From assembly GCA_964517765.1 (NCBI GenBank), contig CAZFEN010000001.1, positions 34,345 to 98,344 of the forward strand: DNA of 64,000 nt, in the 5' to 3' direction. Each line of letters begins with the position of its first letter. Within the stretch, counting starts at the first letter, position 1. The notes beneath the pieces are model-generated. The model was not told the DNA's origin. It did no database searches and saw only the letters and a program-made list of their open reading frames with translations. The DNA is from an uncultured Actinomycetota bacterium. Lineage in GTDB: Bacteria > Actinomycetota > Humimicrobiia > Humimicrobiales > Humimicrobiaceae. Positions 4,242-24,677 of this stretch are shown here, one piece after another. A program made the translations under genes and the position numbers.

Positions 4242-4832
4242 CTAAAACAAATTTATTAATCCGTAATTATGATAGATAAAAAAGGTAGTTATGGTGGAGA
4301 TTCCCACACCGAAGATTACCTGATTGACTGTATGTTCTTTGATTCTTACTCTTGCCCAACCTATTACAGGAATAAGGGGGACCATGAGCAGCATCCATCT
4401 GCCGAATAAAATATTAAAAGTAATGACTATAAAAGTTATCCAGCTGGTATGAAGACTGATTTTCCAGAAATAGGTTATGATAGTCAAAATAACAGTAGAG
4501 ACTACGCTTACTGCAAATATGGATTTTAGGAATAAAGGAGCTCCCAGAGTATATAAAATAAGGTAACCTACTATATGACAGATACTTATTATAATTAGGG
4601 GTTTAATTCTTTCTTTCTTATTTAGAACGTGAAAATCAATTATTGTATTCCTTTTCAATAAAAAAAATATATAAAAATAAGGAATTAAAAAGCTAAACAA
4701 TAAACATATAAAAGCCCAGCTTATGGCACTTCTTATATTATCCACAACTTTAAGACAAACAATAAAGGAAACCGGGATTGAAATGAATGTACCATCAAAA
4801 ATATGTGATAATATTCTTGCAAATTTATTCAT
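4242..4832 (-). CDS. hypothetical multi-TM membrane protein
   Basis: 196-aa ORF, hydrophobic helices throughout, no recognisable motif. Confidence 0.45.
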   Translation of the reverse strand: MNKFARILSHIFDGTFISIPVSFIVCLKVVDNIRSAISWAFICLLFSFLIPYFYIFFLLKRNTIIDFHVLNKKERIKPLIIISICHIVGYLILYTLGAPLFLKSIFAVSVVSTVILTIITYFWKISLHTSWITFIVITFNILFGRWMLLMVPLIPVIGWARVRIKEHTVNQVIFGVGISTITTFFIYHNYGLINLF

Positions 4833-4971
4833 TTTTCTTCAACTTTAAAATTTTCTAATATTAATAATTTTTTATTAAATTTACAATTTAACATAATTAA
4901 TATTTAAACACTTTTAATAATTAGTAATTTTTTAAGTAATGCTAATATAATATTTCTTATTATTACATTTT

Positions 4972-5973
4972 TTACATTATACTTTTTATCCATTCAGGTA
5001 GATATTGTATACCTACCGGTATGATAGATATAATTATAATTCCAATAGTAGTCCTTATAGTTTTAAAGTTCGTAGGCCAAATATTTAAAGAATTGATTCT
5101 TTTTTTATATAGAATCAACTTATCAATCTTTTCAAACTCAATTATATTAATCTCTTCTATATTTTTATCTAAAAAACTGTTATGTTCTTTCTGTATTCGA
5201 TAGTTCATTTCATCCAAAGCTTTTTTCTTTTCTAAAAAAAGTTTCTTCCTAATTGGAATTTCAGGTATTAGAAACATACTTATCATAATGATCGCTGAGA
5301 AAGAACAATAGCCTATTATTAATTTCCCCATAGGTAGAACCTTTGCAAATATTATGCTAGTAATACAAACAGATATATATATGCTTCCTATGATTGCAAC
5401 TTCATATGCAATGTTTCTTAAAAATATTATTGATATATTTTCTCTATACCACAACCCTACTTTCACTAGTCTCCCTAATCTTATAGAATATACAAAATAA
5501 GTTATTAGGGAATATAAAGAAAAACCTGTAATGAAATTTATTGAAAATAAAAATATAGATAACAATATAAGAAGTATTTTATTACCCTCCCAAGAACCTA
5601 ATACTTTAGGAGCAAGTCCAATAAGAGATCCATAAATAACCCCTGAAATGCACATTAATTTTAAATTAAAAATTTCTTTTAAAAATCTATCTGACATATT
5701 TCTTTTTTCTTTTATTTCTTTTCCAATTAATATAAATTTAAAGAACTCAAAAGAATTTTTTAAAACGTATTTGCCAATATTCAAGAGTCCCCATAGCAAA
5801 AATGCATTTGCACAAAACAGGAGTATAATAAACGTTGAATCTTTAATGTTTTTTGTAAAAAACCATTGTAAAAAAATATAAGATAATCCAACAATTATTG
5901 GTGCAATAATTAAAATTAGATGAATAGATTTTCTATCGAAAAAAAAATTATTATAAAAAATTTTATTTTTCAT
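4972..5973 (-). CDS. hypothetical polytopic membrane protein, encoded in an AT-rich islet
   Basis: 333-aa ORF with many TM segments; local GC about 20%. Confidence 0.45.
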   Translation of the reverse strand: MKNKIFYNNFFFDRKSIHLILIIAPIIVGLSYIFLQWFFTKNIKDSTFIILLFCANAFLLWGLLNIGKYVLKNSFEFFKFILIGKEIKEKRNMSDRFLKEIFNLKLMCISGVIYGSLIGLAPKVLGSWEGNKILLILLSIFLFSINFITGFSLYSLITYFVYSIRLGRLVKVGLWYRENISIIFLRNIAYEVAIIGSIYISVCITSIIFAKVLPMGKLIIGYCSFSAIIMISMFLIPEIPIRKKLFLEKKKALDEMNYRIQKEHNSFLDKNIEEINIIEFEKIDKLILYKKRINSLNIWPTNFKTIRTTIGIIIISIIPVGIQYLPEWIKSIM

Positions 5974-6130
5974 AAAATCTCCCTATATTTTTAAGTACAT
6001 ATTATTTATATTAATTTCAATTTTAAATAAACGATAAAGATAATTCTTTATGAGTATTCTTATTTTACTTTCTAATTAGAAACACTATAAAATACATTTA
6101 AATATAGAGGATTCATTTAATTATTATTGT

Positions 6131-7078
6131 TTAACCAATATTTATAAAATCTATCAATATTTTATTAACAACTTGATGTTTTTCTTCAATACTGTCATGT
6201 CCTGCTTCATCTATAATTTCTAAACTGGAATTTTTAATATAATTATTAAATCCATAGGCAGAATCAACATTTATCCATTTATCATTTTTGCCCCAGATTA
6301 TAAGAGTAGGAATATTTATACTTTCTAAAAAAGTTTTGATATTATATCTATTAAGACCATTCATAAAACCTTTTATGATTTTTAAAAAAACTTTATTTGA
6401 ATTTTTTATTCTGAAAGGTGTCAAATAATTAACAATAATATTTTCATTAATGAATGAATTATTATAAATTAACGTTCTTAAAATTTTAATGAAATTAGAT
6501 TTTTTTACAAAGAAGTGATAATACATAACATTTATTATTTGATAATTAACAAAGGTTAGGATAAACCTAAAGCGGTTTCTAAAACCAAATCCATCAATCA
6601 GAACCAGTTTTTCAAACTTATCGGGACATAAGCCATAAGCTAATAACACTATTTCACCGCCCATTGAATGACCGATGGCCACCACTTTACCAATTTTTTT
6701 CTTAGTAATAAAATCTAATAATATTCTGGCTTGTTCTATCAATGTATAATCAGAATTTAGCATCCTTTCAGAATATCCATGGCCCTTCAAATCTAATACA
6801 TATACTTTATGATACTTTGAAAGTTCTTCAATGCCATATCTAAATGTAAATATATTTGCTCCAAGGCCATGAATGAAAATAATACTTTTACCTTTATTGC
6901 CTCTTTCTACATAATGAATATTCACTCCTCTTAATTTTATTAAGCTACCTTCTGTTTTAATTTGATTTAAATCTATATTAATAAACTTATTAACTCTAAA
7001 GACAACATAACGATAATATATAAAAATAATTATTACTATAAAACAAATTGGAAATAAATAATAAAATGTTTCTGTCAT
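6131..7078 (-). CDS. alpha/beta-hydrolase-fold protein (esterase/lipase-like) with N-terminal TM anchor
   Basis: HGLGANIFTF oxyanion region and GHSMGG nucleophile elbow; very AT-rich coding sequence. Confidence 0.65.
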   Translation of the reverse strand: MTETFYYLFPICFIVIIIFIYYRYVVFRVNKFINIDLNQIKTEGSLIKLRGVNIHYVERGNKGKSIIFIHGLGANIFTFRYGIEELSKYHKVYVLDLKGHGYSERMLNSDYTLIEQARILLDFITKKKIGKVVAIGHSMGGEIVLLAYGLCPDKFEKLVLIDGFGFRNRFRFILTFVNYQIINVMYYHFFVKKSNFIKILRTLIYNNSFINENIIVNYLTPFRIKNSNKVFLKIIKGFMNGLNRYNIKTFLESINIPTLIIWGKNDKWINVDSAYGFNNYIKNSSLEIIDEAGHDSIEEKHQVVNKILIDFINIG

Positions 7079-7251: not shown

Positions 7252-8097
7252 TTATTCCATTACTTTTTCATTGGATTTCTTGGCCAGATAGACTTTCTTA
7301 TCTGCTTCTACCATGAAATTTTTAATACTGCATCCTTCCTTATAATACTCTATACCCATACTCAGGTCTGTATTCTGGCAGTTTAATCCTAAAAACTTTT
7401 CTCTTATTCTGCATGCAATTTCCTGTGCGATTTTTCCCTCTGCCTGGTTTATTATTATTAGAAATTCGTCTCCTCCGAATCGGAAACCCAGATCGACACC
7501 TTCTCTTATGTTTTTACGGATAATGCTCCCCAGGCTTTTAAGCAGTTTATTTCCACTCTCATGACCATTATGGTCATTATATTTTTTAAAATTATCGATA
7601 TCGAACATTATAATTGCTACTTTTTCTTTTTTTCTTCTTCCCCTGCTGATTTCCTCGTTAAGCCTTCTGTCCAGATACCTGATATTATATAATCCGGTCA
7701 AATAATCGAGATATGTAGATCTTACCAGTTTCTTTTGAAGCTTCTTATATGAAGTTATGTCAGTGAGAGTAGTAACCACGTATAAAATATTTCCATCGTC
7801 ATCCCTTACGGGGGAATTACTCGCCAGTGTGTTAACTATGGTTCCATCACTTCTCAAGAATTCTATTTCATAATTTAGCGCCGTTTTGCTATTAACAATT
7901 TTTTTAAACCTTTTTCCTTTATGTTTTGGTGAAAGAATACTTAAATACCTTTTACCTACAAGCATGTTCGGATCATATCCATAATCCCTTATCTTTTCAT
8001 TTACAAAAAGGATATTGTTTTTAATGTCTTTTATTACAAATATTTCATTTGTATTCTGAAGTATTTTTTCTATATAAGGTAAAAACTTCTTTAACAT
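7252..8097 (-). CDS. PAS-GGDEF diguanylate cyclase
   Basis: 281 aa; intact GGDEF (FRFGGDEFLII) and upstream DYLTGLYN motif; N-terminal PAS-like segment. Confidence 0.75.
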   Translation of the reverse strand: MLKKFLPYIEKILQNTNEIFVIKDIKNNILFVNEKIRDYGYDPNMLVGKRYLSILSPKHKGKRFKKIVNSKTALNYEIEFLRSDGTIVNTLASNSPVRDDDGNILYVVTTLTDITSYKKLQKKLVRSTYLDYLTGLYNIRYLDRRLNEEISRGRRKKEKVAIIMFDIDNFKKYNDHNGHESGNKLLKSLGSIIRKNIREGVDLGFRFGGDEFLIIINQAEGKIAQEIACRIREKFLGLNCQNTDLSMGIEYYKEGCSIKNFMVEADKKVYLAKKSNEKVME

Positions 8098-9605: not shown

Positions 9606-11363
9606 ATTATAAGATTATATCTGGCACAGATTAATCCAACCGTCGGAGATCTCAAAGGAAATTATGACATCATTGCTTCCCATATCGAAGCAGCAAAAAA
9701 AAACGAGACCGACATAGTGGTATTCCCTGAGCTTTCCATTACCGGATATCCCCCTGAAGATCTTCTTCTCAGGAAATCTTTTGTTGACGAAAATATCGTT
9801 TATCTGGATAAGCTTAAAAAAAGTACTGCAAACATTTTTGCCATTATTGGTTTTGTTGGAAGAGAACGCAGTCAAATATACAATTCGGCTGCAGTACTTT
9901 ATGACAGGCAGGTAAAAGCGGTATATAACAAACAATTCCTGCCAAATTACTCGGTTTTTGATGAGGAAAGATATTTCAAAAAAGGCAGTGTAAATTATAT
10001 TTTCAAAGTAGCAGAAACATTTATCGGAATCAATATATGTGAGGATATATACCATCCATCAGGTCCATTAGAAATTCAGTCCGTATTAGGTGGAGCGGAA
10101 CTTATAATAAACATATCCGCTTCTCCTTACCATATTGAAAAAATCAGCGAAAGAAAAAAGTTTCTGACTCATGCTGCCGCTAATAACTGTGTGAATATTG
10201 CTTATTTAAATTTGGTCGGAGGCCAGGATGAACTGGTATTCGACGGGAATAGTGTGATCATCAACGAAAAAGGTGATATTCTGGACCATGCAAAACCATT
10301 CAAAGAAGATGTGCTTATATATGATCTTGATACAGGAGGAGCAGCTGCTGCCAGATTAAAAGATTCCGGATTTGAAAATCAAAAAACAGAAATGCAGAAA
10401 TATCATGAACCATTACCTCTGATAGATTTAAAATATTATAAAAAAAGAAAAAAAATAAATAAGGAATATAAAATTGTCTCCGGATATAACCGTTACATTG
10501 TCTGTATCGAAGCAGAAATACTTCAGGCATTGATTCTCGGAACCAGAGACTATGTTAACAAAAATAAGTTCGATAAAGTGGCCATTGCATTGAGCGGAGG
10601 CATTGATTCCGCTTTAACTGCAGTGATCGCTGCTTTTGCCCTCGGAAAGAATAGAGTTAATGGAATCATAATGCCCTCGCCCTATTCATCAAAGGGGAGT
10701 ATTGAGGATTCAATAGAACTATCCCACAATCTCGGTATCAATTTTTTAACCATCCCTATTTCGGATATTTATAACACCTATCTCGAAAATTTAAAGGTCA
10801 TATTAAAGCACTCCGGGATAAACATCACAAAAGAAAACTTACAGGCGCGTATCAGAGGGAATATCTTAATGGCAGCTGCCAATGAAAACGACTGGCTGGT
10901 GTTATCTACAGGGAATAAAAGTGAGATAAGCGTGGGATATTGCACTCTTTATGGAGATATGGTAGGAGGATTTTCGCCAATAAAAGACGTTTATAAAACA
11001 ATGGTTTATAAAATTTGCAGGTATATCAACAAAAACTATTCAGAGATAATACCGAAAAAAATAATCAATAAAATCCCTTCCGCAGAACTTAAACCGGATC
11101 AGAAAGATGAAGATAGGTTACCTCCATACAGGATCCTGGATCCGATACTCAAAGCATATATAGAAGACGATCTTGATTATCGTTCCATTTCAGAAAAAGG
11201 ATTCGGTAAAAAAACCGTAAGAGAAGTCATTGAGATGGTGGACCATAGTGAATATAAAAGGAGACAGGGTTCTCCCGGTATCAAAATAACCCCCAGAGCA
11301 TTCGGCAAGGATCGAAGATATCCAATCACCAATAATTTTAAGTTGTATAAGACCGCTGATTAA
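9606..11363 (+). CDS. nadE: glutamine-dependent NAD+ synthetase (nitrilase domain + NAD synthetase domain); start codon uncertain and non-canonical
   Basis: Conserved N-terminus (I)RLYLAQINPTVGDLKGN is encoded upstream of the first ATG/GTG (9717). GGAGG RBS at 9590-9594. C-terminal PP-loop SGGIDS. Confidence 0.8.
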   Translation: MIRLYLAQINPTVGDLKGNYDIIASHIEAAKKNETDIVVFPELSITGYPPEDLLLRKSFVDENIVYLDKLKKSTANIFAIIGFVGRERSQIYNSAAVLYDRQVKAVYNKQFLPNYSVFDEERYFKKGSVNYIFKVAETFIGINICEDIYHPSGPLEIQSVLGGAELIINISASPYHIEKISERKKFLTHAAANNCVNIAYLNLVGGQDELVFDGNSVIINEKGDILDHAKPFKEDVLIYDLDTGGAAAARLKDSGFENQKTEMQKYHEPLPLIDLKYYKKRKKINKEYKIVSGYNRYIVCIEAEILQALILGTRDYVNKNKFDKVAIALSGGIDSALTAVIAAFALGKNRVNGIIMPSPYSSKGSIEDSIELSHNLGINFLTIPISDIYNTYLENLKVILKHSGINITKENLQARIRGNILMAAANENDWLVLSTGNKSEISVGYCTLYGDMVGGFSPIKDVYKTMVYKICRYINKNYSEIIPKKIINKIPSAELKPDQKDEDRLPPYRILDPILKAYIEDDLDYRSISEKGFGKKTVREVIEMVDHSEYKRRQGSPGIKITPRAFGKDRRYPITNNFKLYKTAD

Positions 11364-11402: not shown

Positions 11403-12860
11403 TTATTCCTGAGAATTATTTTCCAATATTTCCAGAAATATTCTTACTATATTAGGATCGAATTGTGTCCCGCAGCATCTTTTTATCTCTTTTACTACTT
11501 CTTTTCTTGTCAGCTTATTCCTGTATGGCCTGTCTGTGGTCATGGCTTCATAGGAATTGACCAGAAATGATATTCTTGAAAGTATGGGAATCTCTTCACC
11601 CTTTACTCCTCTTGGATATCCCTCGCCATTATACCATTCATAGTGGGAGAGTATTGCTTCTGCTATGGGCTTGAGTACCATTGATGATTCTGCTATACGG
11701 TATCCGATCTCGGGAAGTTTTTGTACTATCTTCCATTCCTCGTTTGAAAGTCTTCCCGGTTTTGACATTATTTCATCTGCCAGCGCCAGTTTTCCTATAT
11801 TGTGAAGATCCATAAGTAGTTTTAGTTCATCAAGTTTTATACTCGAAAGCTTGAGTTTTTTCCCTATCGTAAGAGCATACTGCTGCATCCTGCCGGTGTG
11901 TTTCTCACGGCGGTATTCTCCTCTTTTTAGATTCTCTCTGAGTGAAGATATAATGATTTCATTTGTGGATTTGCTCTCGGTGATTTTACACTTATACATC
12001 TTATCTTCGGCTTCTTTCAGTACAGAATTCATATCTTTATTTGATGATTTCTTTGACGAGACCCCCAATGAAATACTTAAGGGCATATCAGCTGTACTTC
12101 TTTCAATGCACATCTTCTTTATTCTATTTATTATATCTTTAGTATCTTTTTCGTAAGTACTGGGAAGTATTGCTATAAACTCATCTCCCCCCCATCTTGA
12201 GATGATATCTTCTTTTCTAAAGGTATCTCTTAGTATATCGGCTATCTTTTTTATAAACAGGTCCCCCTTTTCATGGCCATATGCGTCATTTATTATTTTA
12301 AGCCCATTTATATCACCCATCACTATGGTTATGGGAAGCTGCCTTGCGGTGTCGAGCCTTCTTAGTTCTTCATCAAAATATGCCCTGTTATAGAGTCCGG
12401 TAAGTGAGTCATGGAAGGAGAGGTATTTTATTTTTTCTTCTGCCTTTTTTCTGTCCGATATATCCCGCGAAACACCAAATGTACCTATAATATTACCTTT
12501 TTTATCGTAAAAAGGCATTTTCGTTGATGATATCCATCTGCTTTTCTTTCCCGACCATGTTTCTTTTTCTTGCATATCTACGATAGGTTTTCCTGTTTTT
12601 ATTATTAGCTGCTCATCTTTATAAGCCTGTTTTGCATGTTCTTCAGAAAAAAAGTCAAAATCTGTTTTTCCCACTGCTTCATCCGTGCTCACTCCAAAAG
12701 CTTTATCTGCACAGGCCTTATTAACTCTTATAATCCTGCTTTTAAGATCCTTGAAATATATACTATCCGGAAGGTAGTCCATAAGAGCATCCATCATAAG
12801 GGTGTTCATGATTTCTGATTGGATGGTATCAGATTTTGATTTTTTTTGTTTTTTTACCAT
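11403..12860 (-). CDS. PAS-GGDEF-HD-GYP protein with degenerate HD-GYP motifs
   Basis: 485 aa; GGDEF intact (RWGGDEFIAIL). HD-GYP has HN instead of HD (LHNIGK), SHYEWYNGEGYP instead of HHExxDGxGYP. Confidence 0.75.
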   Translation of the reverse strand: MVKKQKKSKSDTIQSEIMNTLMMDALMDYLPDSIYFKDLKSRIIRVNKACADKAFGVSTDEAVGKTDFDFFSEEHAKQAYKDEQLIIKTGKPIVDMQEKETWSGKKSRWISSTKMPFYDKKGNIIGTFGVSRDISDRKKAEEKIKYLSFHDSLTGLYNRAYFDEELRRLDTARQLPITIVMGDINGLKIINDAYGHEKGDLFIKKIADILRDTFRKEDIISRWGGDEFIAILPSTYEKDTKDIINRIKKMCIERSTADMPLSISLGVSSKKSSNKDMNSVLKEAEDKMYKCKITESKSTNEIIISSLRENLKRGEYRREKHTGRMQQYALTIGKKLKLSSIKLDELKLLMDLHNIGKLALADEIMSKPGRLSNEEWKIVQKLPEIGYRIAESSMVLKPIAEAILSHYEWYNGEGYPRGVKGEEIPILSRISFLVNSYEAMTTDRPYRNKLTRKEVVKEIKRCCGTQFDPNIVRIFLEILENNSQE

Positions 12861-13143
12861 TTTAATACTTTGCCTTGATATTTTTATTAAGAATTCTTTT
12901 CTAAATTTAAAGATTTATTATGATAATTTTACCTTTAAATCAAATTTTATCAACAATCTCTTAATTCCGCAGCTTTTTCCTCCGGCAAAGTATCGTTTAA
13001 AAATTTACAGATAAATTATATTTTATGTTTAACACCACTAAACTTCCTTTCATTATTTTCTTTTTTAATACTGTTTATAGTTATTTTTATAATGGTAAAA
13101 TTAATTTATAATATATTGGATATTAAAAGACATTAAACTTCTT

Positions 13144-13851
13144 TTGAATATAAACTTATATAAAACCGGGTTGTATATGATTAAGGCACTTTTATATACT
13201 AAAAATAAAATAAATGAAAATAAAATAAATGAAATCTTGGAAGGTAAGGATTTCGCTTTTCAGGTAGAAAAATCATTTAACGATCTACTTCCCCGGCCCA
13301 AAGATACCGGTATAGTCATTTTTGATATTACTGTTAAAGATAAAGGTGATGATGTCCCTATTAAAAATATTATTAAAATAGCTAATAAACACAATATTGC
13401 CAGATTAGTAATACTTAAACCGGATCAAATAAGCTTTCTGTCAGAAGATGAGGCCAGTTTCGATGATTTTATTTTTGATAACCGGCTCGAGGAAGAGTTT
13501 CTTCTAAGAATAAAGATTATCCTTCAAAAAAAAGATCTTTTGCCTTCCAAAAATGCTATTGTAGCAGGCGGGCTGATATTAGATATGGATAAGTTTGAAA
13601 TAACAGTTGACCGGAGACCCGTAGAGGCAACCTTTAAGGAATTCGAACTTTTAAAAATCCTCCTGCAGAATCAGAATAAAGTATTCACCCGAAATAAGCT
13701 CTTATCTGCAGTCTGGGAGTATGATTTCTATGGCGGCAGCAGAACCGTAGATGTGCATATGCGAAGACTGCGCTCCAAAATCCCTCCACCATATAATCTG
13801 ATGTTAAAAACTGTCAGGAATGTCGGCTATATGTTCTCTCCTCAAATTTAG
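13144..13851 (+). CDS. OmpR/PhoB-family winged-helix transcriptional regulator with atypical (orphan-like) receiver domain
   Basis: C-terminal trans_reg_C (FELLKILLQNQNKVFTRNKLLSAVWEYDFYGGSRTVDVHMRRLRSKI). N-terminal receiver-like region lacks the acidic DD pair. Confidence 0.65.
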   Translation: MNINLYKTGLYMIKALLYTKNKINENKINEILEGKDFAFQVEKSFNDLLPRPKDTGIVIFDITVKDKGDDVPIKNIIKIANKHNIARLVILKPDQISFLSEDEASFDDFIFDNRLEEEFLLRIKIILQKKDLLPSKNAIVAGGLILDMDKFEITVDRRPVEATFKEFELLKILLQNQNKVFTRNKLLSAVWEYDFYGGSRTVDVHMRRLRSKIPPPYNLMLKTVRNVGYMFSPQI

Positions 13852-13893
13852 TTCTTAATAGTTCCAAACTCACAGTATTTAAGCTTTTAATAA

Positions 13894-13920
13894 TTAACAT
13901 ACTTTTAACAGAAACTTAAC
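13894..13920 (+). promoter_or_regulatory. three TTAAC direct repeats at 11-bp spacing upstream of amt; putative OmpR-family binding sites
   Basis: TTAACatacttTTAACagaaacTTAAC read from sequence, about 60 bp upstream of the amt start. Confidence 0.35.
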
Positions 13921-13981
13921 CTCCCCGTAAAGTTATAGCTGTAGAATACTCTGCATTATAAAAAATTAAAGGAGGTTAAAA

Positions 13982-15244
13982 ATGGATAATCCGGCAATTA
14001 ATCTGGATACGGTGTGGGTATTGTTCACTGCATTTCTGGTATTTTTCATGCAGGCCGGGTTTGCTATGGTAGAAACCGGGTTCACCAGGGCCAAAAATTC
14101 TGTAAATATTCTTATGAAAAATCTGATTGATTTTTGTGTGGGAAGTGTTCTATTTTTTCTTATTGGTTTCGGATTAATGTTTGGTAAAGATGCTGGAGGT
14201 TTTATCGGAACCAGCAACTTTGTTGTCTCAATAATCGGACAGTCAGATACTTCGAATTTTGCCTTCTGGATATTCCAGACCGTATTTGCAGCTACAGCAG
14301 CTACTATAGTTTCGGGAGCTGTTTCCGAAAGGATCAAATTTAAAAACTATTTGATTTACTCCGTATTTATATCAGGTCTGATATATCCTATAGTAGGTCA
14401 CTGGATCTGGGGCGGCGGATGGCTGGCAGATATGGGCATGATTGACTTTGCCGGTTCTACCGTAGTTCATTCGGTAGGTGGATGGGCTGGTCTCGCCGGG
14501 GCTATCATGCTTGGTCCAAGACTCGGTAAATATAACAGGGATGGGTCTTCAAATGCTATAACCGGTCACAATATTCCACTTGCCGCGCTTGGAGTATTTA
14601 TTTTATGGTTCGGGTGGTATGGATTTAATCCGGGAAGCACTCTTTCTGCAAGTAGCCCCGCCATATCCACTATAGCGGTTACAACCACACTTGCTGCTTC
14701 GACAGGAGCGCTGGCTGCAATGTTCTTTACCTGGATAAGATACAAGAAACCGGATGCTTCTATGACCCTTAACGGGGCACTGGCCGGATTGGTTGGTATT
14801 ACTGCAGGATGTGCAGTCGTATCGCCATACAGCGCAATGATTATCGGCAGTTTGTGCGGAATAATTGTATGTATATCCGTAGAACTATTTGACAAGAAGT
14901 TTAAAATCGATGATCCCGTAGGAGCAGTATCTGTTCATGGTGTTTGCGGTCTCTTTGGTACTTTGTTTGTAGGTCTTTTCGCACAGTCAAAATACGCGAG
15001 TCTTGCAGGATTTGAAGGTGTAAATGGATTGTTTTTTGGCGGCGGAGGAAAACTACTGCTTGCCCAGTTTACAGGTTCAATCAGCGTATTTGTATGGACT
15101 TTCGGAACAATGCTACTGTTATTCTTTTTGATCAAGAAAACAATAGGACTAAGGGTGTCCAGGGAAACAGAGCTCAAAGGTCTTGATATTGATGAACATG
15201 GTATGGAAGCATACAGCGGGTTTCAGATATTCCTGAATGATTAG
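13982..15244 (+). CDS. amt: ammonium transporter (Amt family)
   Basis: 420 aa; 11-TM Amt-family signature regions (DFAGSTVVHSVGG); strong RBS AAAGGAGG upstream. Confidence 0.9.
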   Translation: MDNPAINLDTVWVLFTAFLVFFMQAGFAMVETGFTRAKNSVNILMKNLIDFCVGSVLFFLIGFGLMFGKDAGGFIGTSNFVVSIIGQSDTSNFAFWIFQTVFAATAATIVSGAVSERIKFKNYLIYSVFISGLIYPIVGHWIWGGGWLADMGMIDFAGSTVVHSVGGWAGLAGAIMLGPRLGKYNRDGSSNAITGHNIPLAALGVFILWFGWYGFNPGSTLSASSPAISTIAVTTTLAASTGALAAMFFTWIRYKKPDASMTLNGALAGLVGITAGCAVVSPYSAMIIGSLCGIIVCISVELFDKKFKIDDPVGAVSVHGVCGLFGTLFVGLFAQSKYASLAGFEGVNGLFFGGGGKLLLAQFTGSISVFVWTFGTMLLLFFLIKKTIGLRVSRETELKGLDIDEHGMEAYSGFQIFLND

Positions 15245-15280
15245 AATTATTATAAATTTTATATGAAGAGGTGATAAAAA

Positions 15281-15622
15281 ATGAAATTGATTATTGCAAT
15301 GATACAACCGCATAAATTGCCTGATGTGAAAAAAGAATTATTTGATGCAGAAGTTTATAAAATGACCATAACCAATGTTCTCGGTTGCGGCCAGCAAAAG
15401 GGATATGAGGAAACATACAGGGGAGTTATACACGAAGTTAATCTTCTAAAAAAAATAAGATTGGAAATTGCAGTAAACGAAGATTTTGTAAAACCCACCG
15501 TTGAAGCAATTAAAAACGGTGCTTATACCGGAAATATTGGTGACGGTAAAATATTTATTCTCGATCTGCCAGGGTGCATCAGAATTCGAACCGGAGAGGA
15601 GGGAGAAAAAGCAATAGGTTAA
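15281..15622 (+). CDS. glnK: nitrogen regulatory protein P-II (GlnK/GlnB); T-loop has His at position 51
   Basis: 113 aa; aligns with E. coli GlnB throughout (B-loop GDGKIF, C-terminal IRIRTGEEG). Confidence 0.9.
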
Positions 15623-15661
15623 TGATAGGTTATTAAATTAATAAGGCAGCAATTATAAAAT

Positions 15662-15677
15662 TTAACATAGATTTAAC
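15662..15677 (+). promoter_or_regulatory. TTAAC-n6-TTAAC direct repeat upstream of glnA (same motif and spacing as upstream of amt)
   Basis: TTAACatagatTTAAC read from sequence, about 100 bp upstream of glnA. Confidence 0.3.
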
Positions 15678-15778
15678 ATAACCTGCATAAATTTTATAAA
15701 AATTAAGATATAATATTAAAAAAGTTCCATATTATTATAAACAATTAGATTTTCAGTCAAAATAAAAGGAAGTGAAAC

Positions 15779-17116
15779 ATGAAAACCAATAACAAGATGA
15801 AAGAATTTGTATTAAAAAAAGTTCATGACAATAATGTAAAATTCATAAGATTATGGTTTACGGATGTTCAGGGCATTCTAAAGAGTTTTTCCATAACGAA
15901 GGAGGAATTGGAAGGAGCACTTGAAGAGGGAATGGGATTCGATGGTTCGTCTATCGAAGGATTTTCCCGAATAGAAGAAAGCGATGTCATTGCTTTACCG
16001 GATCCGAACACTTTTCAGATGTTACCCTGGAGTCCTAATGAAAATGGGGTCGCAAGAATGTTTTGTGATGTTTTAAATCCTGACGGTTCCCATTTTAAAG
16101 GTGACCCGAGATGGGTACTGAAAAAAGAACTTAAGAAAATAAGCGAATCCGGGTATACATATTATGTCGGACCGGAACTCGAATATTTTTACTTCAAATC
16201 CGACAAAGGCAAGCCTGAAACACTGGACAGAGGGGGATATTTTGATTTAACTACCCTTGATGCAGCAAGCCCGCTCCGAAGGGATACCATTCTTTATCTT
16301 GAGTCTATGGGTATAGGTGTCGAATATTCACACCATGAGGTGGCCCCTTCGCAGCATGAGATAGACTTGAGATATACTGATGCCCTGACCATGGCAGATA
16401 ATGCAATGACCTACAGATTGGTAGTCAAGGAAGTTGCAACAAGAAACGGAGTTTATGCAACATTTATGCCCAAACCTATTTTTGGGGTCAACGGCAGCGG
16501 CATGCATACACATCAATCATTATTTAAGGGTGACAAAAATGCCTTTCATGATCCTAAAGATAAATACAATCTGTCAACTACAGGTAAACAATTTATTGCA
16601 GGATTGCTTCGCCACAGCAAGGAAATAGTAGCAATAACAAACCAGTGGGTGAATTCCTATAAAAGACTTGTGCCCGGTTATGAAGCTCCTGTTTATATTT
16701 CGTGGGCCAGAAGAAACAGATCCACTCTTGTTAGGGTTCCAATGTATAAGCCCGGAAAAGAAAAATCAACAAGAATTGAGTTTAGATGTCCCGATCCGGC
16801 ATGCAATCCATATCTTGCATTCAGCTTGATGCTCGCTGCCGGAATGGAAGGTATAAAAAATAAATATCCTTTACCCGATCCGATAGAAGAAAACATTTTT
16901 GAAATGGATGTAGAAAGAAGAGAAAAAGCAGGAATCGAAACTCTTCCCGACAACCTCTTTGAAGCTTTAAAGTATTTCGAAAAAAGCAAGCTTGCAAGAG
17001 AAACTCTTGGGGATCATATCTTCTTTAAATTTATCGAAAATAAAAAAATCGAATGGGACAGATACAGGATACAGGTGACGGATTACGAACTGGATAACTA
17101 CCTGCCTATTTTATAA
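15779..17116 (+). CDS. glnA: glutamine synthetase type I
   Basis: 445 aa; beta-grasp N-domain and catalytic domain motifs. Confidence 0.9.
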   Translation: MKTNNKMKEFVLKKVHDNNVKFIRLWFTDVQGILKSFSITKEELEGALEEGMGFDGSSIEGFSRIEESDVIALPDPNTFQMLPWSPNENGVARMFCDVLNPDGSHFKGDPRWVLKKELKKISESGYTYYVGPELEYFYFKSDKGKPETLDRGGYFDLTTLDAASPLRRDTILYLESMGIGVEYSHHEVAPSQHEIDLRYTDALTMADNAMTYRLVVKEVATRNGVYATFMPKPIFGVNGSGMHTHQSLFKGDKNAFHDPKDKYNLSTTGKQFIAGLLRHSKEIVAITNQWVNSYKRLVPGYEAPVYISWARRNRSTLVRVPMYKPGKEKSTRIEFRCPDPACNPYLAFSLMLAAGMEGIKNKYPLPDPIEENIFEMDVERREKAGIETLPDNLFEALKYFEKSKLARETLGDHIFFKFIENKKIEWDRYRIQVTDYELDNYLPIL

Positions 17117-17962: not shown

Positions 17963-18841
17963 TCACAGGACTGATTCTTCTTTTAAAATTTTATCCAGTA
18001 CTAAACCTGCTCCATAGGAAGATCTTATAAATATTCCGCTCTCAACTGCTTTAAAACCAAAACTCATGGCCAATTCTCTTATGCTTTCAAATTCTTCAGG
18101 CTTATAATACTTCTTTACCGGAATATTCGATAGTGAAGGCCTGAGATATTGGCCTATTGTAACTATATCACAGCTTACTCCCTTTAAATCTGCCAGCAAT
18201 TCTCCCACTTCTTCCCTGCTTTCCCCGAGCCCAAGCATAAATCCGGACTTTGTGTAAATATCGGGTTTAAACAGTTTAGAAAATTTTAATATGGCAAGAG
18301 AATTCTCGTAATTTGAGTATTTCCTGGCTAAAGAGAAATTTCTTTTTATTGTCTCTATATTATGAGCCAGTACATCCGGATTTCTCATAAGAACAATCTT
18401 CAAGTTGTCGGTATTTCCTTTAAAATCGGGAATCAGACACTCTATTTTTGAAAAAGGGTTTGATCTCTTTATTTCGCTTATAGTTTTTGCAAAATGATAA
18501 CTTCCGCCATCGGTCAGATCATCTCTGGTCACCGAAGTAATTACGGCATATTTCAATCTCATTTTCTTTACCGCAGATGCTATTCTTGTGGGTTCATATT
18601 CATCAAGGATTTGAGGTTTTCCGGATCTTATCCCGCAAAAACCACAATTACGGGTACAGGTATTCCCCATCAACATGAAAGTCGCGATTTTTTTCCCAAA
18701 ACATTCAAAAATATTTGGGCACCCGGCACTCTGACAGACAGTATTTAAATGCAAATCATAAAGGAGATTTTTGATCTGCTTGATTTTAAAGTTGTTCAGG
18801 TTGACTTTCTTCTTAAGCCAATCCGGCGTGTTACTGGACAA
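17963..18841 (-). CDS. lipA: lipoyl synthase
   Basis: N-terminal auxiliary-cluster cysteines (CQSAGCPNIFEC) plus radical-SAM CTRNCGFC; aligns with E. coli LipA. Confidence 0.9.
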   Translation of the reverse strand: MSSNTPDWLKKKVNLNNFKIKQIKNLLYDLHLNTVCQSAGCPNIFECFGKKIATFMLMGNTCTRNCGFCGIRSGKPQILDEYEPTRIASAVKKMRLKYAVITSVTRDDLTDGGSYHFAKTISEIKRSNPFSKIECLIPDFKGNTDNLKIVLMRNPDVLAHNIETIKRNFSLARKYSNYENSLAILKFSKLFKPDIYTKSGFMLGLGESREEVGELLADLKGVSCDIVTIGQYLRPSLSNIPVKKYYKPEEFESIRELAMSFGFKAVESGIFIRSSYGAGLVLDKILKEESVL

Positions 18842-19697
18842 TTCTACTCACAATTCTTTCGAGATCTCTAATAGAGCCAAATTCTACTACGATTTTTCCC
18901 TTTTTTTTGCTCATTGATATTTTAACAGGAGCATTCAAATGCTCGGATAATTTCTGAGATATTTCGGGAAATTTACTTAACTGTAATACTTTTTTGTCTT
19001 TTTTGCCTTCGACAGTCTCTTTTTTCTTAGTTGCTATTCTTTCTACATCTCTTACGCTGAGATCGTTTTTGGTTATGAGATTTGCAACTTTTATCCTTTC
19101 CTCTTCTCCGTCTATTGCCAGTATCGACCTCGCATGTCCCTCGCTTATCTTTCCTTCGTTTATCAATTTTTGGATTTCGAGGGGGAGCGAGATCAATCTT
19201 AATAAGTTTGTTATTGATACCCTGCTTTTCCCAACTCTTTTTGAAAGTTGGTCATGGGTTATCTTAAATTCATCTATAAGTTGTTTAAACGTATGAGCCT
19301 TTTCCATGGGGCTTAAGTTATCTCTATGAATGTTTTCAATAAGAGCCATTTCAAGGGAAGATATATCATCAATATCTTTAACTATTATAGAAGGAATTGT
19401 ATTAATACCAATTTTTTTAGTGGCTCTGTATCTTCTCTCTCCGGTAACAATTTCATATTTTTCTTCCTCATCCAATCTTCTTACAACTATGGGCTGGATG
19501 ACCCCAAATTCCTTTATTGACTCGGAAAGCTCAGCAAGTGATTCATCGTCAAACCTGCTCCTGGGCTGATTTTTGTTTGGGATAATCTTATCCAATGACA
19601 GTTCAACTATTGTATTTGATTCACCTTCTAAAGATTTGTCTATGCTTGGAATTAAAGCACCAAGTCCCCTGCCTAAACCTCTTCTAGCCATTTTCAA
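18831..19697 (-). CDS. parB: chromosome partitioning protein ParB/Spo0J
   Basis: GLGRGLGALIP N-terminal motif, ParB box, HTH; stop overlaps lipA start by 11 nt. Confidence 0.9.
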   Translation of the reverse strand: MKMARRGLGRGLGALIPSIDKSLEGESNTIVELSLDKIIPNKNQPRSRFDDESLAELSESIKEFGVIQPIVVRRLDEEEKYEIVTGERRYRATKKIGINTIPSIIVKDIDDISSLEMALIENIHRDNLSPMEKAHTFKQLIDEFKITHDQLSKRVGKSRVSITNLLRLISLPLEIQKLINEGKISEGHARSILAIDGEEERIKVANLITKNDLSVRDVERIATKKKETVEGKKDKKVLQLSKFPEISQKLSEHLNAPVKISMSKKKGKIVVEFGSIRDLERIVSRIVQ

Positions 19698-20520
19698 TCA
19701 CTTCCTTTGTAAAATTGTTGTAAGCTTCTGCACCTTTGCAATGAGGATCGTAATCTATTATGGGTTTGCCGTAACTGGGGGCCTCGCTCAGCCTCACGTT
19801 TCTTGGGATAACTGTCTTATATACTTTTTCCGAGAAATAATTTTTGACTTCTTCTATTACCTGTTCTGCAAGTTTTATTCTTGGATCATACATGGTCATT
19901 ATTGCTCCCTTTATTTTCAAGGCATCATTTAGATTTTTTTTAACCAGATTTATTGTATTCAAAAGTTGGCCAAGCCCTTCAAGTGCATAATACTCGCATT
20001 GTATTGGTATAATAACCTCTCTGGCCGCTGTTAAAGCATTAATAGTCAAAAGCCCCAGCGCCGGAGGACAATCGATAAGTATGAAATCGTAGTCTTTTTC
20101 AATCTTGATTATGGCTTCTTTTAATCTAAACTCTCTTTTTAAGCTCGAAACCAGTTCAACTTCTGCTCCGGCAAGCTGTATTGAAGACGGAAGAAGTCTT
20201 AGATTTTTATACGAGGTATCTATAATTATTTCATCCGGCTCACTGTCATGGATCAATATATCATATATCGACTGTTTTACATCCGAGGGATTTACGCCCA
20301 GACCGCTTGTCGAATTGCTTTGCGGATCGAGATCTATAAGTAAAGTTTTGTAGCCATAAGAGCTTAAATATGCAGATACATTTACTGCTGTTGTGCTTTT
20401 ACCAACACCACCTTTTTGATTTGTAAAAGCAATTATTCTGCTCAGCCGTTTTTTATTTACCATTTCGTCCTGTTTTTTATTTTTGATTATCATATCAAAA
20501 AATTTCAATTTATGGATCAC
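19684..20520 (-). CDS. parA: chromosome partitioning ATPase ParA/Soj
   Basis: Deviant Walker A KGGVGKSTTAVNVS. Confidence 0.9.
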   Translation of the reverse strand: MIHKLKFFDMIIKNKKQDEMVNKKRLSRIIAFTNQKGGVGKSTTAVNVSAYLSSYGYKTLLIDLDPQSNSTSGLGVNPSDVKQSIYDILIHDSEPDEIIIDTSYKNLRLLPSSIQLAGAEVELVSSLKREFRLKEAIIKIEKDYDFILIDCPPALGLLTINALTAAREVIIPIQCEYYALEGLGQLLNTINLVKKNLNDALKIKGAIMTMYDPRIKLAEQVIEEVKNYFSEKVYKTVIPRNVRLSEAPSYGKPIIDYDPHCKGAEAYNNFTKEVIENG

Positions 20521-20581
20521 CTGCTTACTAATTTAATGTATATAATCATTAGCTCATTTACATATTTATACAAATGATATA

Positions 20582-21316
20582 TTACTGCAACGGTCCCTTG
20601 ACTATTTTATTGAAAGTTCGTGGGTATATTACCGGAGATTTTAGTACTTTCTTTATTACCAGAAAAGTCCTATATTCATTTAAATAAGGGACCTCTACCT
20701 CTAGCAAATTATCTACCTTTCCCCCCAATTTTGAGATAACTTCCCTGTTGCTATCAAGTTCGGTGAATATTTTTTTACTTTTATAAAATATAATTTTACC
20801 ATTTATTCTACAAAATGGAATTGTTAATTCGCTTAAAATATTTAAACTTGCAACGGCTCTCGACAGAACAATATCGAAAGTTTCTCTATATTGGGCTTCA
20901 TTACCCAGCTCCTCTGCCCTGCCTCTGATAACCCTGACATTTTTTAATCCTAATTCCTCTACGATCATATTTAAGAAATTGATTTTTTTTAATGTTTTAT
21001 CCAGAAGATAAAATATTTTATCCTTTAAAAAAATAGACAAAAGCGCTCCGGGTAGTCCTGCCCCCGTTCCTAAATCCAGTACTTTCCGCGCAGGATCTTC
21101 ATTATTGAATACCATCTTTTCATATTTAAGTATCGAGATAGAATCCAGAATATGCCTTACAAGGATCCCCTTTTTATCCTTAGTACCAATAAGATTGAAT
21201 TTCTGATTATACTCATAAACTAAATTCAGGTATTTTTCCAGGATTCTTACCTGGCTCTGAGAAAAGTCAATACCAAATTCTGCGAGCGATTCTCTTAAAA
21301 TATGGGAAGTATTCAA
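20582..21316 (-). CDS. rsmG: 16S rRNA (guanine527-N7)-methyltransferase RsmG (GidB)
   Basis: SAM motif LDLGTGAGLPG; conserved position downstream of mnmG. Confidence 0.85.
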   Translation of the reverse strand: MNTSHILRESLAEFGIDFSQSQVRILEKYLNLVYEYNQKFNLIGTKDKKGILVRHILDSISILKYEKMVFNNEDPARKVLDLGTGAGLPGALLSIFLKDKIFYLLDKTLKKINFLNMIVEELGLKNVRVIRGRAEELGNEAQYRETFDIVLSRAVASLNILSELTIPFCRINGKIIFYKSKKIFTELDSNREVISKLGGKVDNLLEVEVPYLNEYRTFLVIKKVLKSPVIYPRTFNKIVKGPLQ

Positions 21317-23184
21317 TTCAATACCTTCTTTGATCTACCCTTTAGATTTAACATTATTATTGATATATCCGCTGGTGATACTCCTGCAATCCTTGAAGCC
21401 TGACCAAGAGTATTTGGCTTGATTTTTGTTAATTTCTCCTGCGCTTCGTAAGTCAAACCTATTATTTTAAAATAGTCCAGATCCGGTAAAAGATAATATC
21501 TTTCCAGATTCCCTAATTTTTTAATTTCTGCCAGCTGCCGGTTTATATAACCTTCGTATTTTGTTCTTATTTCTGCCTGCTCAAGCACCCCCTTCTCATA
21601 GCTGCTTTTTTTACCGATAAAATAGTCCACTACATCATGAATGCTAACTTCTGGTCTTTTTAAAAGTTTATAAATATTAAAAGGGGTATCAATGGATCTG
21701 GTTCCGATCTTTTCAAGTATTTTATTATTCTTTTTATCCGGATTCAAAATAATATTTTTTAATTTTGACACCAGTTTATTTGTTTTCTCTTCCTTTCTTC
21801 TTACTTTCTCATACTGGCCATCTGTTATTAGACCAGCGCTGTTACCAAATCCACACAATCGTATATCGGCATTATCGGACCGTAATATCAGCCTGTATTC
21901 CGCCCTGGAAGTATACATCCTGTAAGGTTCTATAAGATCTTTAGTAAGAAGATCATCGATTAAAACTCCTATATAGCTGGTATCTCTGGTCAGTATCATT
22001 TGTGATCTGCCCAGTACCTTGAGTGCCGCATTTATTCCGGCAACAAGACCCTGGGCTGCTGCCTCTTCATACCCTGAAGTGCCATTTATCTGGCCCGCAA
22101 AATATAAATTTTCTATATTTTTCGATTCCAGAGTAAAATTCAGTTGACTTGGAATTATATAATCATACTCTACCGCATAACCGGGCCTTATTATTCTGGC
22201 ATTTTCCAATCCTTCAACAGTATTTACTATTTTCTGCTGTATTTCTGCGGGCATACTTGTAGTAAGCCCCTGAAGATACATTTCACCGCTGTGTGCACCT
22301 TCTGGTTCAATAAAAACAGGGTGCCTTTTTTTCCCGGGGAAATTTATGACTTTTCTATCTATAGAAGGGCAGTGCCTTGGTCCATGGGTATCAACCATCC
22401 CGGATCTTATAGGGGATTTCTCTATATTTTCGGTGATAATTTTATGGGTTTTCTTATTTGTATAAGTAATATAACAATCAATGTTTTCGTATATCTTTTC
22501 TTCATCCCAGAATGAAAAGCTTAAAGGTTCCCTGTCTCCGCATTGAACAATTGTTTTAGAGAAATCCACTGTTCTTTTATCGATCCTCGGAGGAGTAGCC
22601 GTTTGAAATCTGCCTATATTAAAATTAAGGTCAATTAAGTTTTTGGTTAAATTCATTGCGGGATATTCCCCCATCCGTCCGGCTTGATAATCTTTTTCCC
22701 CTATTATGATTCTTCCTCTCAAAAAAGTACCGGCGGTAATTACCACTGCTTTCCCCTTAAAAATTAAACCGCTTTCTGTTTCAACTCCAAATGCCTTATT
22801 ATTTTTAACAAATATCTTATTTATTGTCCCCTGTCTCAAAGTTAAATTCTGAGTGTTTTCAAGGATTCTCTTCATCTCGATTTCGTATTTTTTCTTATCT
22901 ATCTGAGCCCTTAGAGCCTGGACTGCCGGACCCTTGCTTCTGTTCAGGACCTTTATCTGTATTAAAGTATTGTCGGCTGTCTTTGCCATCTGTCCGCCAA
23001 GTGCGTCCAGTTCCCTGACCAGCTGACTCTTTCCTAATCCTCCTATTGATGGATTGCAGGGCATTAAAGCAATTTTATCAACATTAATCGTTAGCAGTAT
23101 AGTCTTTAAGCCTAATCTTGCAGATGCCAGTGCCGCTTCGCAACCCGCATGCCCGGCACCTACGACTATTATGTCATACTTCAT
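21313..23184 (-). CDS. mnmG: tRNA uridine 5-carboxymethylaminomethyl modification enzyme MnmG (GidA), full length
   Basis: 623 aa; FAD motif VVGAGHAGCEAA; conserved MPCNPSIGG and GPRHCPSID cysteine motifs; C-terminal helical domain present. Confidence 0.9.
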   Translation of the reverse strand: MKYDIIVVGAGHAGCEAALASARLGLKTILLTINVDKIALMPCNPSIGGLGKSQLVRELDALGGQMAKTADNTLIQIKVLNRSKGPAVQALRAQIDKKKYEIEMKRILENTQNLTLRQGTINKIFVKNNKAFGVETESGLIFKGKAVVITAGTFLRGRIIIGEKDYQAGRMGEYPAMNLTKNLIDLNFNIGRFQTATPPRIDKRTVDFSKTIVQCGDREPLSFSFWDEEKIYENIDCYITYTNKKTHKIITENIEKSPIRSGMVDTHGPRHCPSIDRKVINFPGKKRHPVFIEPEGAHSGEMYLQGLTTSMPAEIQQKIVNTVEGLENARIIRPGYAVEYDYIIPSQLNFTLESKNIENLYFAGQINGTSGYEEAAAQGLVAGINAALKVLGRSQMILTRDTSYIGVLIDDLLTKDLIEPYRMYTSRAEYRLILRSDNADIRLCGFGNSAGLITDGQYEKVRRKEEKTNKLVSKLKNIILNPDKKNNKILEKIGTRSIDTPFNIYKLLKRPEVSIHDVVDYFIGKKSSYEKGVLEQAEIRTKYEGYINRQLAEIKKLGNLERYYLLPDLDYFKIIGLTYEAQEKLTKIKPNTLGQASRIAGVSPADISIIMLNLKGRSKKVLN

Positions 23185-23217
23185 TTCTTCTACTCGATAT
23201 GTCCATTAAATAATTAT

Positions 23218-23235
23218 ATGTTTCACGTGAAACAT
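23218..23235. promoter_or_regulatory. perfect 18-bp palindrome ATGTTTCACGTGAAACAT, 34 nt upstream of the mnmG start, overlapping a TATAAT -10-like hexamer (mRNA sense)
   Basis: Read directly; the same 16-bp core recurs at 24678-24693. Confidence 0.5.
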
Positions 23236-23237
23236 TG

Positions 23238-24659: not shown

Positions 24660-24677
24660 ATCTGAATTTTATAATTT

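Follow-up and report, generated by a model that had tools for sequence, protein, structure and literature searches.

Directly upstream of the nitrogen genes amt, glnK and glnA, a 64 kb stretch of contig CAZFEN010000001.1 (hereafter the window) carries a gene for an orphan regulator of the OmpR/PhoB family, and both the amt and the glnA promoter contain TTAAC pentamers in phase with the DNA helix. The locus raises the question of whether this regulator is an analogue of GlnR, the OmpR-type nitrogen regulator of actinomycetes, working in a non-actinobacterial lineage, as an initial annotation of the window had proposed, or is GlnR itself. Our answer, to which we give a probability of about 0.85, is that the gene at 13177-13851 is, in a Candidatus Humimicrobiaceae bacterium, the orthologue of glnR, and that its product, an orphan OmpR/PhoB-family protein, would activate amt-glnK and glnA when nitrogen is limiting; the binding, the sign of control, the signal and the transcription starts are predicted. 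The observations behind this answer are homology, identity of the DNA-contact residues, the statistics of the putative sites, their conservation and geometry, synteny, and taxonomy. The four genes of the locus, which lies in a window with a GC content of about 0.36, are the following:

13177..13851, + strand: glnR, orphan atypical OmpR/PhoB-family regulator, 224 aa; the open reading frame (ORF) also opens at TTG 13144
13982..15244, + strand: amt, ammonium transporter, 420 aa; Pfam Ammonium_transp, E = 6e-140
15281..15622, + strand: glnK, PII signal protein, 113 aa; Pfam P-II, E = 3e-26, and NCBIfam PII families match
15779..17116, + strand: glnA, type I glutamine synthetase (GSI), 445 aa; Pfam Gln-synt_N and Gln-synt_C, and TIGR00653 at 540 bits, above its cut-off

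The Pfam matches agree with the original gene calls (an OmpR-type winged-helix regulator, Amt, PII and GSI). The start of glnR is probably ATG 13177 (224 aa) rather than TTG 13144, because aligned homologues nearly all begin at the equivalent ATG. Gaps of 130 bp and 156 bp separate the regulator gene from amt and glnK from glnA, respectively, and the upstream neighbour of glnR is a gene for a PAS-GGDEF-HD protein on the opposite strand.

The regulator protein

The DNA-binding domain of the regulator (Pfam Trans_reg_C, E = 3e-24, residues 158-231 of the 235-aa ORF) is most similar to that of GlnR. Searches of the PDB with the single sequence retrieved 8HIG, 8HML and 8HIH_O at 103, 101 and 99 bits, the next match being RegX3 at 70.5, and a profile built from 76 family members scored the GlnR entries at 137, 132 and 124 bits, compared with 94 for WalR and 91 for RegX3. 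Among solved structures, GlnR of M. tuberculosis and S. erythraea thus leads by 30-45 bits. Entry 8HIH is the transcription activation complex of Mycobacterium tuberculosis GlnR, and 8HML is the DNA-binding domain, on DNA, of GlnR from Saccharopolyspora erythraea (SaeGlnR) (PMC10235972); 8HIG is described in the fold-search table as a second co-crystal of the latter domain. SaeGlnR contacts bases through R186, V190, R193 and R194, and the backbone through T149, K151, R169, W177, T187, H191, R196, T209, R211, N212 and Y215 (PMC10235972). In the HMMER alignment to 8HML/8HIG, all 15 of these 15 residues are identical in the window regulator, and the dimer-contact residue K216 of SaeGlnR is replaced by Met. 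The window regulator also carries the GG(S/T)RTVDVH and RNVGY motifs, which separated GlnR-type proteins from PhoB (RGTGY) in a MAFFT alignment.

Structural modelling gave a concordant picture. The AlphaFold model computed from the family alignment (mean predicted local distance difference test score 85) consists of a receiver-like fold of beta-alpha repeats followed by a winged helix, and its top Foldseek match in the PDB was 8hih_N. The winged-helix domain of the model superimposes on the SaeGlnR DNA-binding domain with a template modelling score of 0.89 and a root mean square deviation of 2.0 Å, at 48-53% sequence identity. The initial annotation is upheld in so far as it recognized an orphan, atypical OmpR/PhoB-family protein of the GlnR kind; the protein is, however, best read as GlnR itself and not as an analogue.

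A MAFFT alignment set the receiver-like N terminus beside that of a Pseudomonas PhoB and those of GlnRs encoded in Rothia, Curtobacterium, Kocuria, Propionicimonas and Aquiluna loci. Its four diagnostic positions read as follows:

Acidic pair after beta1 (DD): T8-K9 in the window regulator; S/T-x in actinobacterial GlnRs
Phospho-acceptor Asp: D50, kept, in the window regulator; D, kept, in actinobacterial GlnRs
Thr/Ser after beta4 (OmpR T83): K81 in the window regulator; T in four actinobacterial GlnRs, A or N in the others
Lys after beta5: D101 in the window regulator; E, D or H in actinobacterial GlnRs

The conserved receiver Lys is taken here to be K105 in Escherichia coli PhoB numbering. 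The initial annotation had described an N terminus lacking the DD pair, which T8-K9 bears out, and the pocket as a whole (DD, Thr and Lys) is lost; however, that account overlooked the Asp retained at the phospho-acceptor position, D50. This residue lies at the C-terminal end of beta3 in the AlphaFold model, in which helix alpha2 is not predicted, and is conserved in at least 90% of the 76 family members. Conservation likewise reaches at least 90% for F95 and D97, and E107 and R111, in alpha4-beta5-alpha5, are invariant. Retention of the Asp has a precedent: in characterised GlnR, Asp50 is unphosphorylated and holds the homodimer together, and in Amycolatopsis mediterranei GlnR a charge network of Asp50, Arg52 and Thr9 stabilises the homodimer (PMC10704036). 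As judged from the alignment, the pattern of loss and retention in the window receiver is that of actinobacterial GlnR.

The same residue gives some substance to a different explanation, in which the protein would be a conventional two-component response regulator that merely resembles GlnR, phosphorylated on Asp50 by a kinase encoded elsewhere. D50 does occupy the canonical phospho-acceptor position and is kept in at least 90% of the family, the family profile can be aligned from end to end with RegX3, MtrA and others, and a HATPase_c protein is encoded 15 kb from glnR. This protein (28945-29811, + strand, 288 aa) lies just upstream of dnaA, lacks HisKA, and has a helix-turn-helix-like C-terminal region; it is not a conventional sensor kinase. 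We nevertheless consider phosphorylation control improbable, given that the acidic Mg2+-binding pair, the Thr/Ser and the Lys are replaced by T8-K9, K81 and D101, that Pfam Response_reg finds no match in the regulator at E < 0.01, and that characterised GlnRs keep the same Asp without phosphorylating it (PMC10704036). The NCBIfam scan also argues against it, with every named response-regulator equivalog far below its cut-off (e.g., 84 vs 296); as it contains no GlnR model either, this collection cannot serve as a membership test for GlnR. Finally, the initial annotation had named an intact pocket accompanied by a cognate kinase as part of what would count against a GlnR-like regulator. The pocket residues are missing, and no histidine kinase gene adjoins the regulator in the window or in the related loci examined, where the upstream gene encodes LacI, URO-D, NadE or GalK and never a kinase. 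Annotation of 57 kb of the window revealed no HisKA protein.

Phased pentamers in the amt and glnA promoters

The promoter features of the locus, with their putative elements, are the following:

13894..13931, + strand: predicted GlnR-box array of amt, four head-to-tail pentamers at 11-bp spacing (TTAAC at 13894, 13905 and 13916; GTAAA at 13927)
13942..13947, + strand: putative -10 element of amt, TAGAAT, corresponding to a TA(G/A)AAT conserved 10 bp after the fourth site in relatives
15662..15677, + strand: predicted GlnR box of glnA, TTAAC-n6-TTAAC within the 11-bp direct repeat ATTTAACATAG / ATTTAACATAA
15709..15714, + strand: putative -10 element of glnA, TATAAT, invariant in all relatives, 47-49 bp past the first site, the same distance as at amt
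13065..13125, + strand: probable promoter of the regulator gene, TTAATA-17-TATAAT with a conserved TTTATAATATA block and no GlnR box

The TTAAC pentamers start exactly where the initial annotation had placed them (13894, 13905 and 13916 before amt; 15662 and 15673 before glnA). Its three sites at 11-bp spacing before amt stand, but the array has four sites and not three, the fourth being GTAAA at 13927. The in-phase positions downstream of the glnA box (15684 and 15695) are degenerate. As that annotation also suggested, the phased pentamers are likely to be the binding sites of the regulator in both promoters, a prediction made from sequence.

The distribution of the motif supports this assignment. 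On both strands of the 64 kb window, TTAACNNNNNNTTAAC has three matches, all in the amt and glnA promoters, where 0.25 were expected, and none of 100 dinucleotide-preserving shuffles reached three. We then scored the window with a weight matrix made from the sites of relatives alone. Relatives' loci (L081, L085, L088-L092, plus L001 and L002; regulators 49-79% identical to that of the window) were fetched, and the window as well as L001 and L002 were left out of the matrix. The top scores were 27.9 bits at glnA and 20.4 and 19.6 bits at amt, and the next match reached 15.2. In 200 windows generated under a Markov null the maximum was 12.9 +/- 2.2 bits, with P(max >= 19.6) = 0.005. Loci L001 and L002 scored on the matrix solely at the analogous places. 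Four lesser matches in the window, at 31198 (- strand, 15.2 bits), 46700 (- strand, 12.5), 59907 (intragenic, 11.1) and 17206 (after the glnA stop, 10.4), were rejected as targets, because they lie at or near the null maximum and have no sensible promoter position. The first of these, at 31198-31219, falls in the gap between dnaA and dnaN and is probably due to chance.

Conservation among relatives delineates the same sites. The amt array is in register across the seven tabulated loci and L002, with GTAAC as the third site in most, and the promoter reads (G/T)A(T/A)TTAACAyn CTTTTAACAnn nnnGTAACCTn CCnGTAAAG, followed ten bases on by the conserved TA(G/A)AAT. The glnA promoter reads GATTTAACAyA GATTTAACAT, and in all relatives its box is conserved and its TATAAT unchanged at a distance of 47-49 bp from the first site. 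The family site consensus is GATTTAACATA, in which A4 and C5 hold in nearly every site. Most of the information lies in TTAACA, with varying spacers and with the conserved C as the most informative position of the unit (2.07 bits). Published GlnR boxes have a 5+6+5 core in which the A at position 4 is essential, and read gTnAc-n6-GaAAc, in a-b-a-b order, in Streptomyces and t/gTAAC-n6-Gc/aAAC in Mycobacterium smegmatis. By its sequence, TTAAC-n6-TTAAC fits the published GlnR box.

In a region this AT-rich (GC about 0.36), pentamers of this kind could be chance periodicity, an upstream promoter (UP) element or curved DNA, or the sites of another factor, and A-tracts in 11-bp phase can indeed be structural. 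We regard this explanation as very improbable. The most informative position of the unit is a C, the motif is found nowhere else in 64 kb, and the pentamers stay in register while their spacers vary. The motif moreover matches the specificity expected of a recognition helix identical to that of GlnR, and the same arrays occur beside GlnR-like genes in GC-richer Dehalococcoidia contigs (see below), where the null expectation is 0.

If the pentamers are GlnR sites, their placement relative to the promoters is informative. No -35 hexamer is recognisable at amt or glnA, and a promoter scan found no -35 partner for either -10 element. With transcription starts assumed about 7 nt after each -10, the sites would begin at approximately -60, -49, -38 and -27 in the amt promoter and at -59 and -48 in the glnA promoter, and the last amt site (13927) would lie between the expected -35 position and the -10 element. 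The amtB scaffold of the M. tuberculosis GlnR-dependent transcription activation complex spans -64 to +13 and contains four sites and a non-optimal -35; its b2 site is downstream of the -35, and one protomer there touches the beta flap and sigma region 4. By analogy, the amt promoter of the window has the a1-b1-a2-b2 layout of the M. tuberculosis amtB promoter.

This geometry suggests how the system may work. GlnR would be constitutively dimeric and independent of phosphorylation, and its protomers would load head-to-tail on (G/T)TAAC pentamers 11 bp apart. Once bound, it would substitute for the missing -35 element and recruit RNA polymerase to promoters with a good -10. Transcription of amt-glnK and glnA would be switched on under nitrogen scarcity, in the way that GlnR activates amtB and glnA in Streptomyces and Mycobacterium. 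In the actinomycetes studied, the signal involves Ser/Thr phosphorylation and acetylation, not Asp phosphorylation (PMC10704036).

The same arrays could also be occupied with the opposite effect, GlnR acting as a repressor or dual regulator that, under nitrogen plenty, occludes the -35 and spacer regions of both promoters. The last two sites of the amt array do lie over these positions, and gdhA is an example of a Streptomyces target under GlnR repression. Some Streptomyces targets are repressed by GlnR (PMC10704036), so the mode of action itself has precedent. Repression is, however, improbable here, and we place it marginally below phosphorylation control in probability. Both promoters combine a good, conserved -10 with the lack of a -35, as is typical of promoters that depend on an activator; at M. 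tuberculosis amtB, four sites laid out in this way, b2 lying downstream of the -35, form an activating complex; and amtB and glnA are activated by GlnR in characterised actinomycetes (PMC10704036). Activation by GlnR thus remains the preferred reading of both promoters.

For the promoter of glnR itself, the promoter scan returned a 10/12 match at 13065-13093, and the block TAAATTAnnTTATAATATA upstream of glnR is conserved in relatives whose upstream genes differ. No weight-matrix dimer rises above background in this promoter. An element TTTAAC-n5-CTAAAC upstream of glnR (about 13030 in the window, and in L088), although conserved, was rejected as a candidate for autoregulation; it has 10-bp spacing and does not score. 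Since glnR has a promoter of its own with a conserved -10 and without a box, the data suggest that there is no glnR autoregulation. A boxless glnR promoter agrees with the constant transcription of glnR in Streptomyces coelicolor (PMC10704036). An Rfam scan of the whole window gave no match; therefore no riboswitch or leader RNA is involved.

One relative without amt-glnK retains part of this architecture. In L091 (6748-6810), an amt-type array of TTTAC/TTAAC/GTAAC/TGAAA is kept together with its TATAAT -10 element; it is followed by about 200 bp ending in a terminator-like hairpin and then by a normal glnA promoter. This array could be a remnant promoter or could drive a small unannotated transcript.

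Host lineage and the wider distribution of GlnR-type loci

The assignment of the locus to a non-actinobacterial lineage did not survive. The DnaA and DnaN proteins of the window fall in 90%-identity clusters with NCBI proteins labelled 'Candidatus Humimicrobiaceae bacterium' and 'Actinomycetota bacterium', and the named homologues of the regulator come from 'Candidatus Humimicrobiaceae bacterium', 'Actinomycetota bacterium' and 'Actinomycetia bacterium'. One homologue (P0017), 72% identical to the window regulator, is encoded on a contig of GCA_036514895.1, a Humimicrobiaceae metagenome-assembled genome (MAG), in which the order of eight genes is that of the window (regulator, amt, glnK, glnA, VIT1, a lipA-like radical SAM gene, parB and parA). 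Its GlnA and GlnK are 94% and 89% identical to those of the window. Candidatus Humimicrobiia is a class of Actinomycetota and is counted among the basal classes of the phylum (PMC10746217). Consequently, the host is an uncultured, low-GC, early-branching actinobacterium. The order regulator-amt-glnK-glnA is kept in the fetched relatives, except for L091 and L001, which are without amt-glnK. The amt calls of two relatives are irregular, with either two ORFs (224 and 174 aa) or one shortened 334-aa ORF (L085:6806-8069 and L092:6848-7852), which could reflect a frameshift, a pseudogene or an assembly error.

Several points weigh against GlnR orthology and the regulatory role proposed here. Foldseek E-values of other OmpR-family proteins are close to those of GlnR. 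The N-terminal 90 or so residues are too diverged to be aligned with GlnR, the HMMER alignments starting near residue 90, and the Arg52 position of the Asp50 network is Thr in the window protein, which has both T8 and D50, where actinobacterial sequences read D-x-R. Full-length identity to actinobacterial GlnRs is 28-32%, no higher than to GlnR-like proteins of Dehalococcoidia and Leptospirales (29-34%), and for this reason orthology is argued from the DNA-binding domain, box, targets and lineage rather than from a phylogeny. Finally, the regulon in view is limited to two promoters, their transcription starts are set by the -10 hexamers alone, and binding and expression are both deduced from the DNA.

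GlnR-like loci outside the relatives place the system in a wider frame. We gathered 80 genome loci with the peptide patterns YDFYGGSR and T[VI]DVH[IM]RRL, a biased sample in that these patterns also catch PhoB-type regulators (e.g., from Pseudomonas), and used it for checks of neighbourhoods and boxes alone, not as a phylogenetic test. A screen for four phased KTAAC pentamers with <= 2 mismatches in total found arrays in 7 of the 80 loci and none in 888 kb of block-shuffled controls. The seven comprise two Humimicrobiia relatives (L001 and L002), four Dehalococcoidia (L010, L019, L024 and L041) and one Omnitrophota-labelled MAG (L044). In the Dehalococcoidia, which belong to the Chloroflexota, the GlnR-like gene (RNIGY, GGDRTVDVH) adjoins amt-glnK-glnA or amt, and four pentamers of GTAAC/TTAAC type precede amt. 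Locus L024 derives from a 2.67-Mb chromosome-level assembly. The Dehalococcoidia arrays are located as follows:

L010: 1119-1156
L019: 6696-6733
L041: 5930-5967
L024: 3725-3762, and 2134-2182 on the - strand

We give even chances to the proposition that GlnR-type control, defined as an orphan OmpR-family regulator with head-to-tail (G/T)TAAC-n6 arrays at amt-glnK-glnA, extends beyond the Actinomycetota, in which case the linked layout of Humimicrobiia might be the ancestral form of a system that is shared across Terrabacteria or was moved between these phyla. The idea in the initial annotation that such control operates outside classical actinobacteria may prove right here. Among the papers searched, none described GlnR in Chloroflexota, and nothing relevant turned up on GlnR in Chloroflexi, Dehalococcoides or Humimicrobiia.

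Other loci of the sample differ in layout. In the high-GC locus L044, two four-site GTAAC arrays (10283-10320 and 10684-10721) lie ahead of two ORFs, a stand-alone OmpR-type winged helix of 105 aa and a porin-like protein of 493 aa, and neither amt nor glnA was detected nearby. In about 25 Acidimicrobiia loci, glnA is immediately upstream of the GlnR-like gene. This layout, with both genes on one strand and with RSVGY in place of RNVGY, is seen in L014-L016, L022, L025, L026, L028-L033, L036, L038, L043, L045-L047, L050, L054 and L059 (at about 4400-6450 in each); L030 also carries an exact TTAAC-n6-TTAAC some 90 bp ahead of glnA. Locus L005, from Armatimonadota, has glnA followed by the regulator, and no phased array was seen upstream of its glnA.

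The surroundings of the locus in the window yielded further observations. Read by eye, the window GlnA has ENIFEMD at the position of the adenylylation motif of GSI-beta. The motif in GSI-beta enzymes is NLYDLP. This reading suggests that the window GlnA is of GSI-alpha type and without GlnE control, unlike classical actinomycete GlnA. The gene for glutamine-dependent NAD+ synthetase, nadE (9717-11363, + strand), lies 1.8 kb upstream of glnR, and in L092 (4255-5976) it is directly upstream; no GlnR box was found before the nadE gene. Three GGDEF cyclic-di-GMP proteins are encoded on the - strand, at 7252-8097 (PAS-GGDEF), 11403-12860 (PAS-GGDEF-HD) and 52008-54128 (GGDEF-HD). Of these, the PAS-GGDEF-HD gene is the one divergent from glnR; relatives instead carry a HisKA_7TM-PAS-GGDEF-HD protein near glnA. 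Positions 18831-32596 are the chromosomal origin region. Its - strand holds parB, parA, rsmG, mnmG, another gene of the GidA family, mnmE, a jag-like (KH/R3H) gene and yidC, its + strand holds dnaA and dnaN, and the sign of GC skew changes at about 28-32 kb.

The reading of the locus as a GlnR system has several implications. It extends the GlnR regulon model, which consists of the box sequence, the geometry of four protomers and the targets amtB and glnA, to a basal class of actinobacteria that is uncultured and low in GC. With the regulator directly beside its targets, the locus is an unusually clean natural example for annotating genes that are now labelled merely 'response regulator transcription factor', and the weight matrix offers a means of predicting the nitrogen regulons of Humimicrobiia MAGs. 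A diverged N-terminal domain that keeps D50 and the dimer interface but little else points to long-term constraint on these features of the GlnR receiver. The Dehalococcoidia finding, if true, would change the textbook view of OmpR-type GlnR as an actinobacterial speciality.

Comparison with known nitrogen and phosphate regulators

The closest known systems are the GlnRs of actinomycetes (S. coelicolor SCO4159, M. tuberculosis Rv0818, and those of M. smegmatis, A. mediterranei and S. erythraea). The window regulator shares with them the winged helix, with all published DNA contacts identical, an atypical receiver (no acidic pair, no conserved Lys, Asp50 kept), the lack of an adjacent kinase, and the phylum Actinomycetota. 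Its predicted targets, amtB-glnK and glnA, are also theirs, as is the 5+6+5 box, (G/T)TAAC-n6-(G/T)TAAC, and the amt promoter has a four-site a-b-a-b array with its last site downstream of the -35. It differs from them in a full-length identity of about 30%, in a first stretch of some 90 residues that cannot be aligned, in an alpha2 helix that is not predicted, and in the replacement of Arg52 by Thr. The strong pentamers of the window are all a-type TTAAC and do not alternate between gTnAc and GaAAc. Unlike in the GlnR systems studied, glnR sits next to its targets (in the order glnR-amt-glnK-glnA), glnK is not followed by glnD, and GC content is low (0.36). In the glnR loci of Micrococcales and Propionibacteriales that we fetched, no amt, glnK or glnA homologue was found within 6 kb flanks.

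GlnRII of Streptomyces, a nitrogen regulator that is likewise of the OmpR family, has a recognition helix resembling that of GlnR and lacks the phosphorylation residues (PMC10704036). As described in that review, by which we set it apart, GlnRII has neither alpha4-beta5 nor any of the three conserved receiver sites, and two positions of its recognition helix depart from GlnR (PMC10704036). In contrast, D50 and the alpha4-beta5-alpha5 residues are retained in the window protein, which at R193, R194 and R196 has the residues of GlnR.

Activation by PhoB/PhoP at pho boxes offers a mechanistic parallel, with head-to-tail binding on 11-bp direct repeats that replace the -35 and contact with sigma region 4, as predicted for the window. 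PhoB, however, depends on phosphorylation by its cognate kinase PhoR and has other recognition residues and another box; in the PDB searches with the window regulator and with its family profile, PhoB reached 59-79 bits and GlnR 100-137. Other Gram-positive bacteria also place amt/nrgA, glnK and glnA under transcriptional control, through TnrA/GlnR of the MerR family in Bacillota and through AmtR of the TetR family in Corynebacterium. These proteins have unrelated folds and bind inverted-repeat operators, the TnrA consensus being the inverted repeat TGTNA-n7-TNACA, whereas the window combines direct repeats on one strand with an OmpR-family regulator. Every GlnR-defining feature that we tested was found at the window locus, except the Arg52 part of the Asp50 network. 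The locus is a new example of the known GlnR system in a basal class of actinobacteria, its boxes having the canonical (G/T)TAAC-n6 form.

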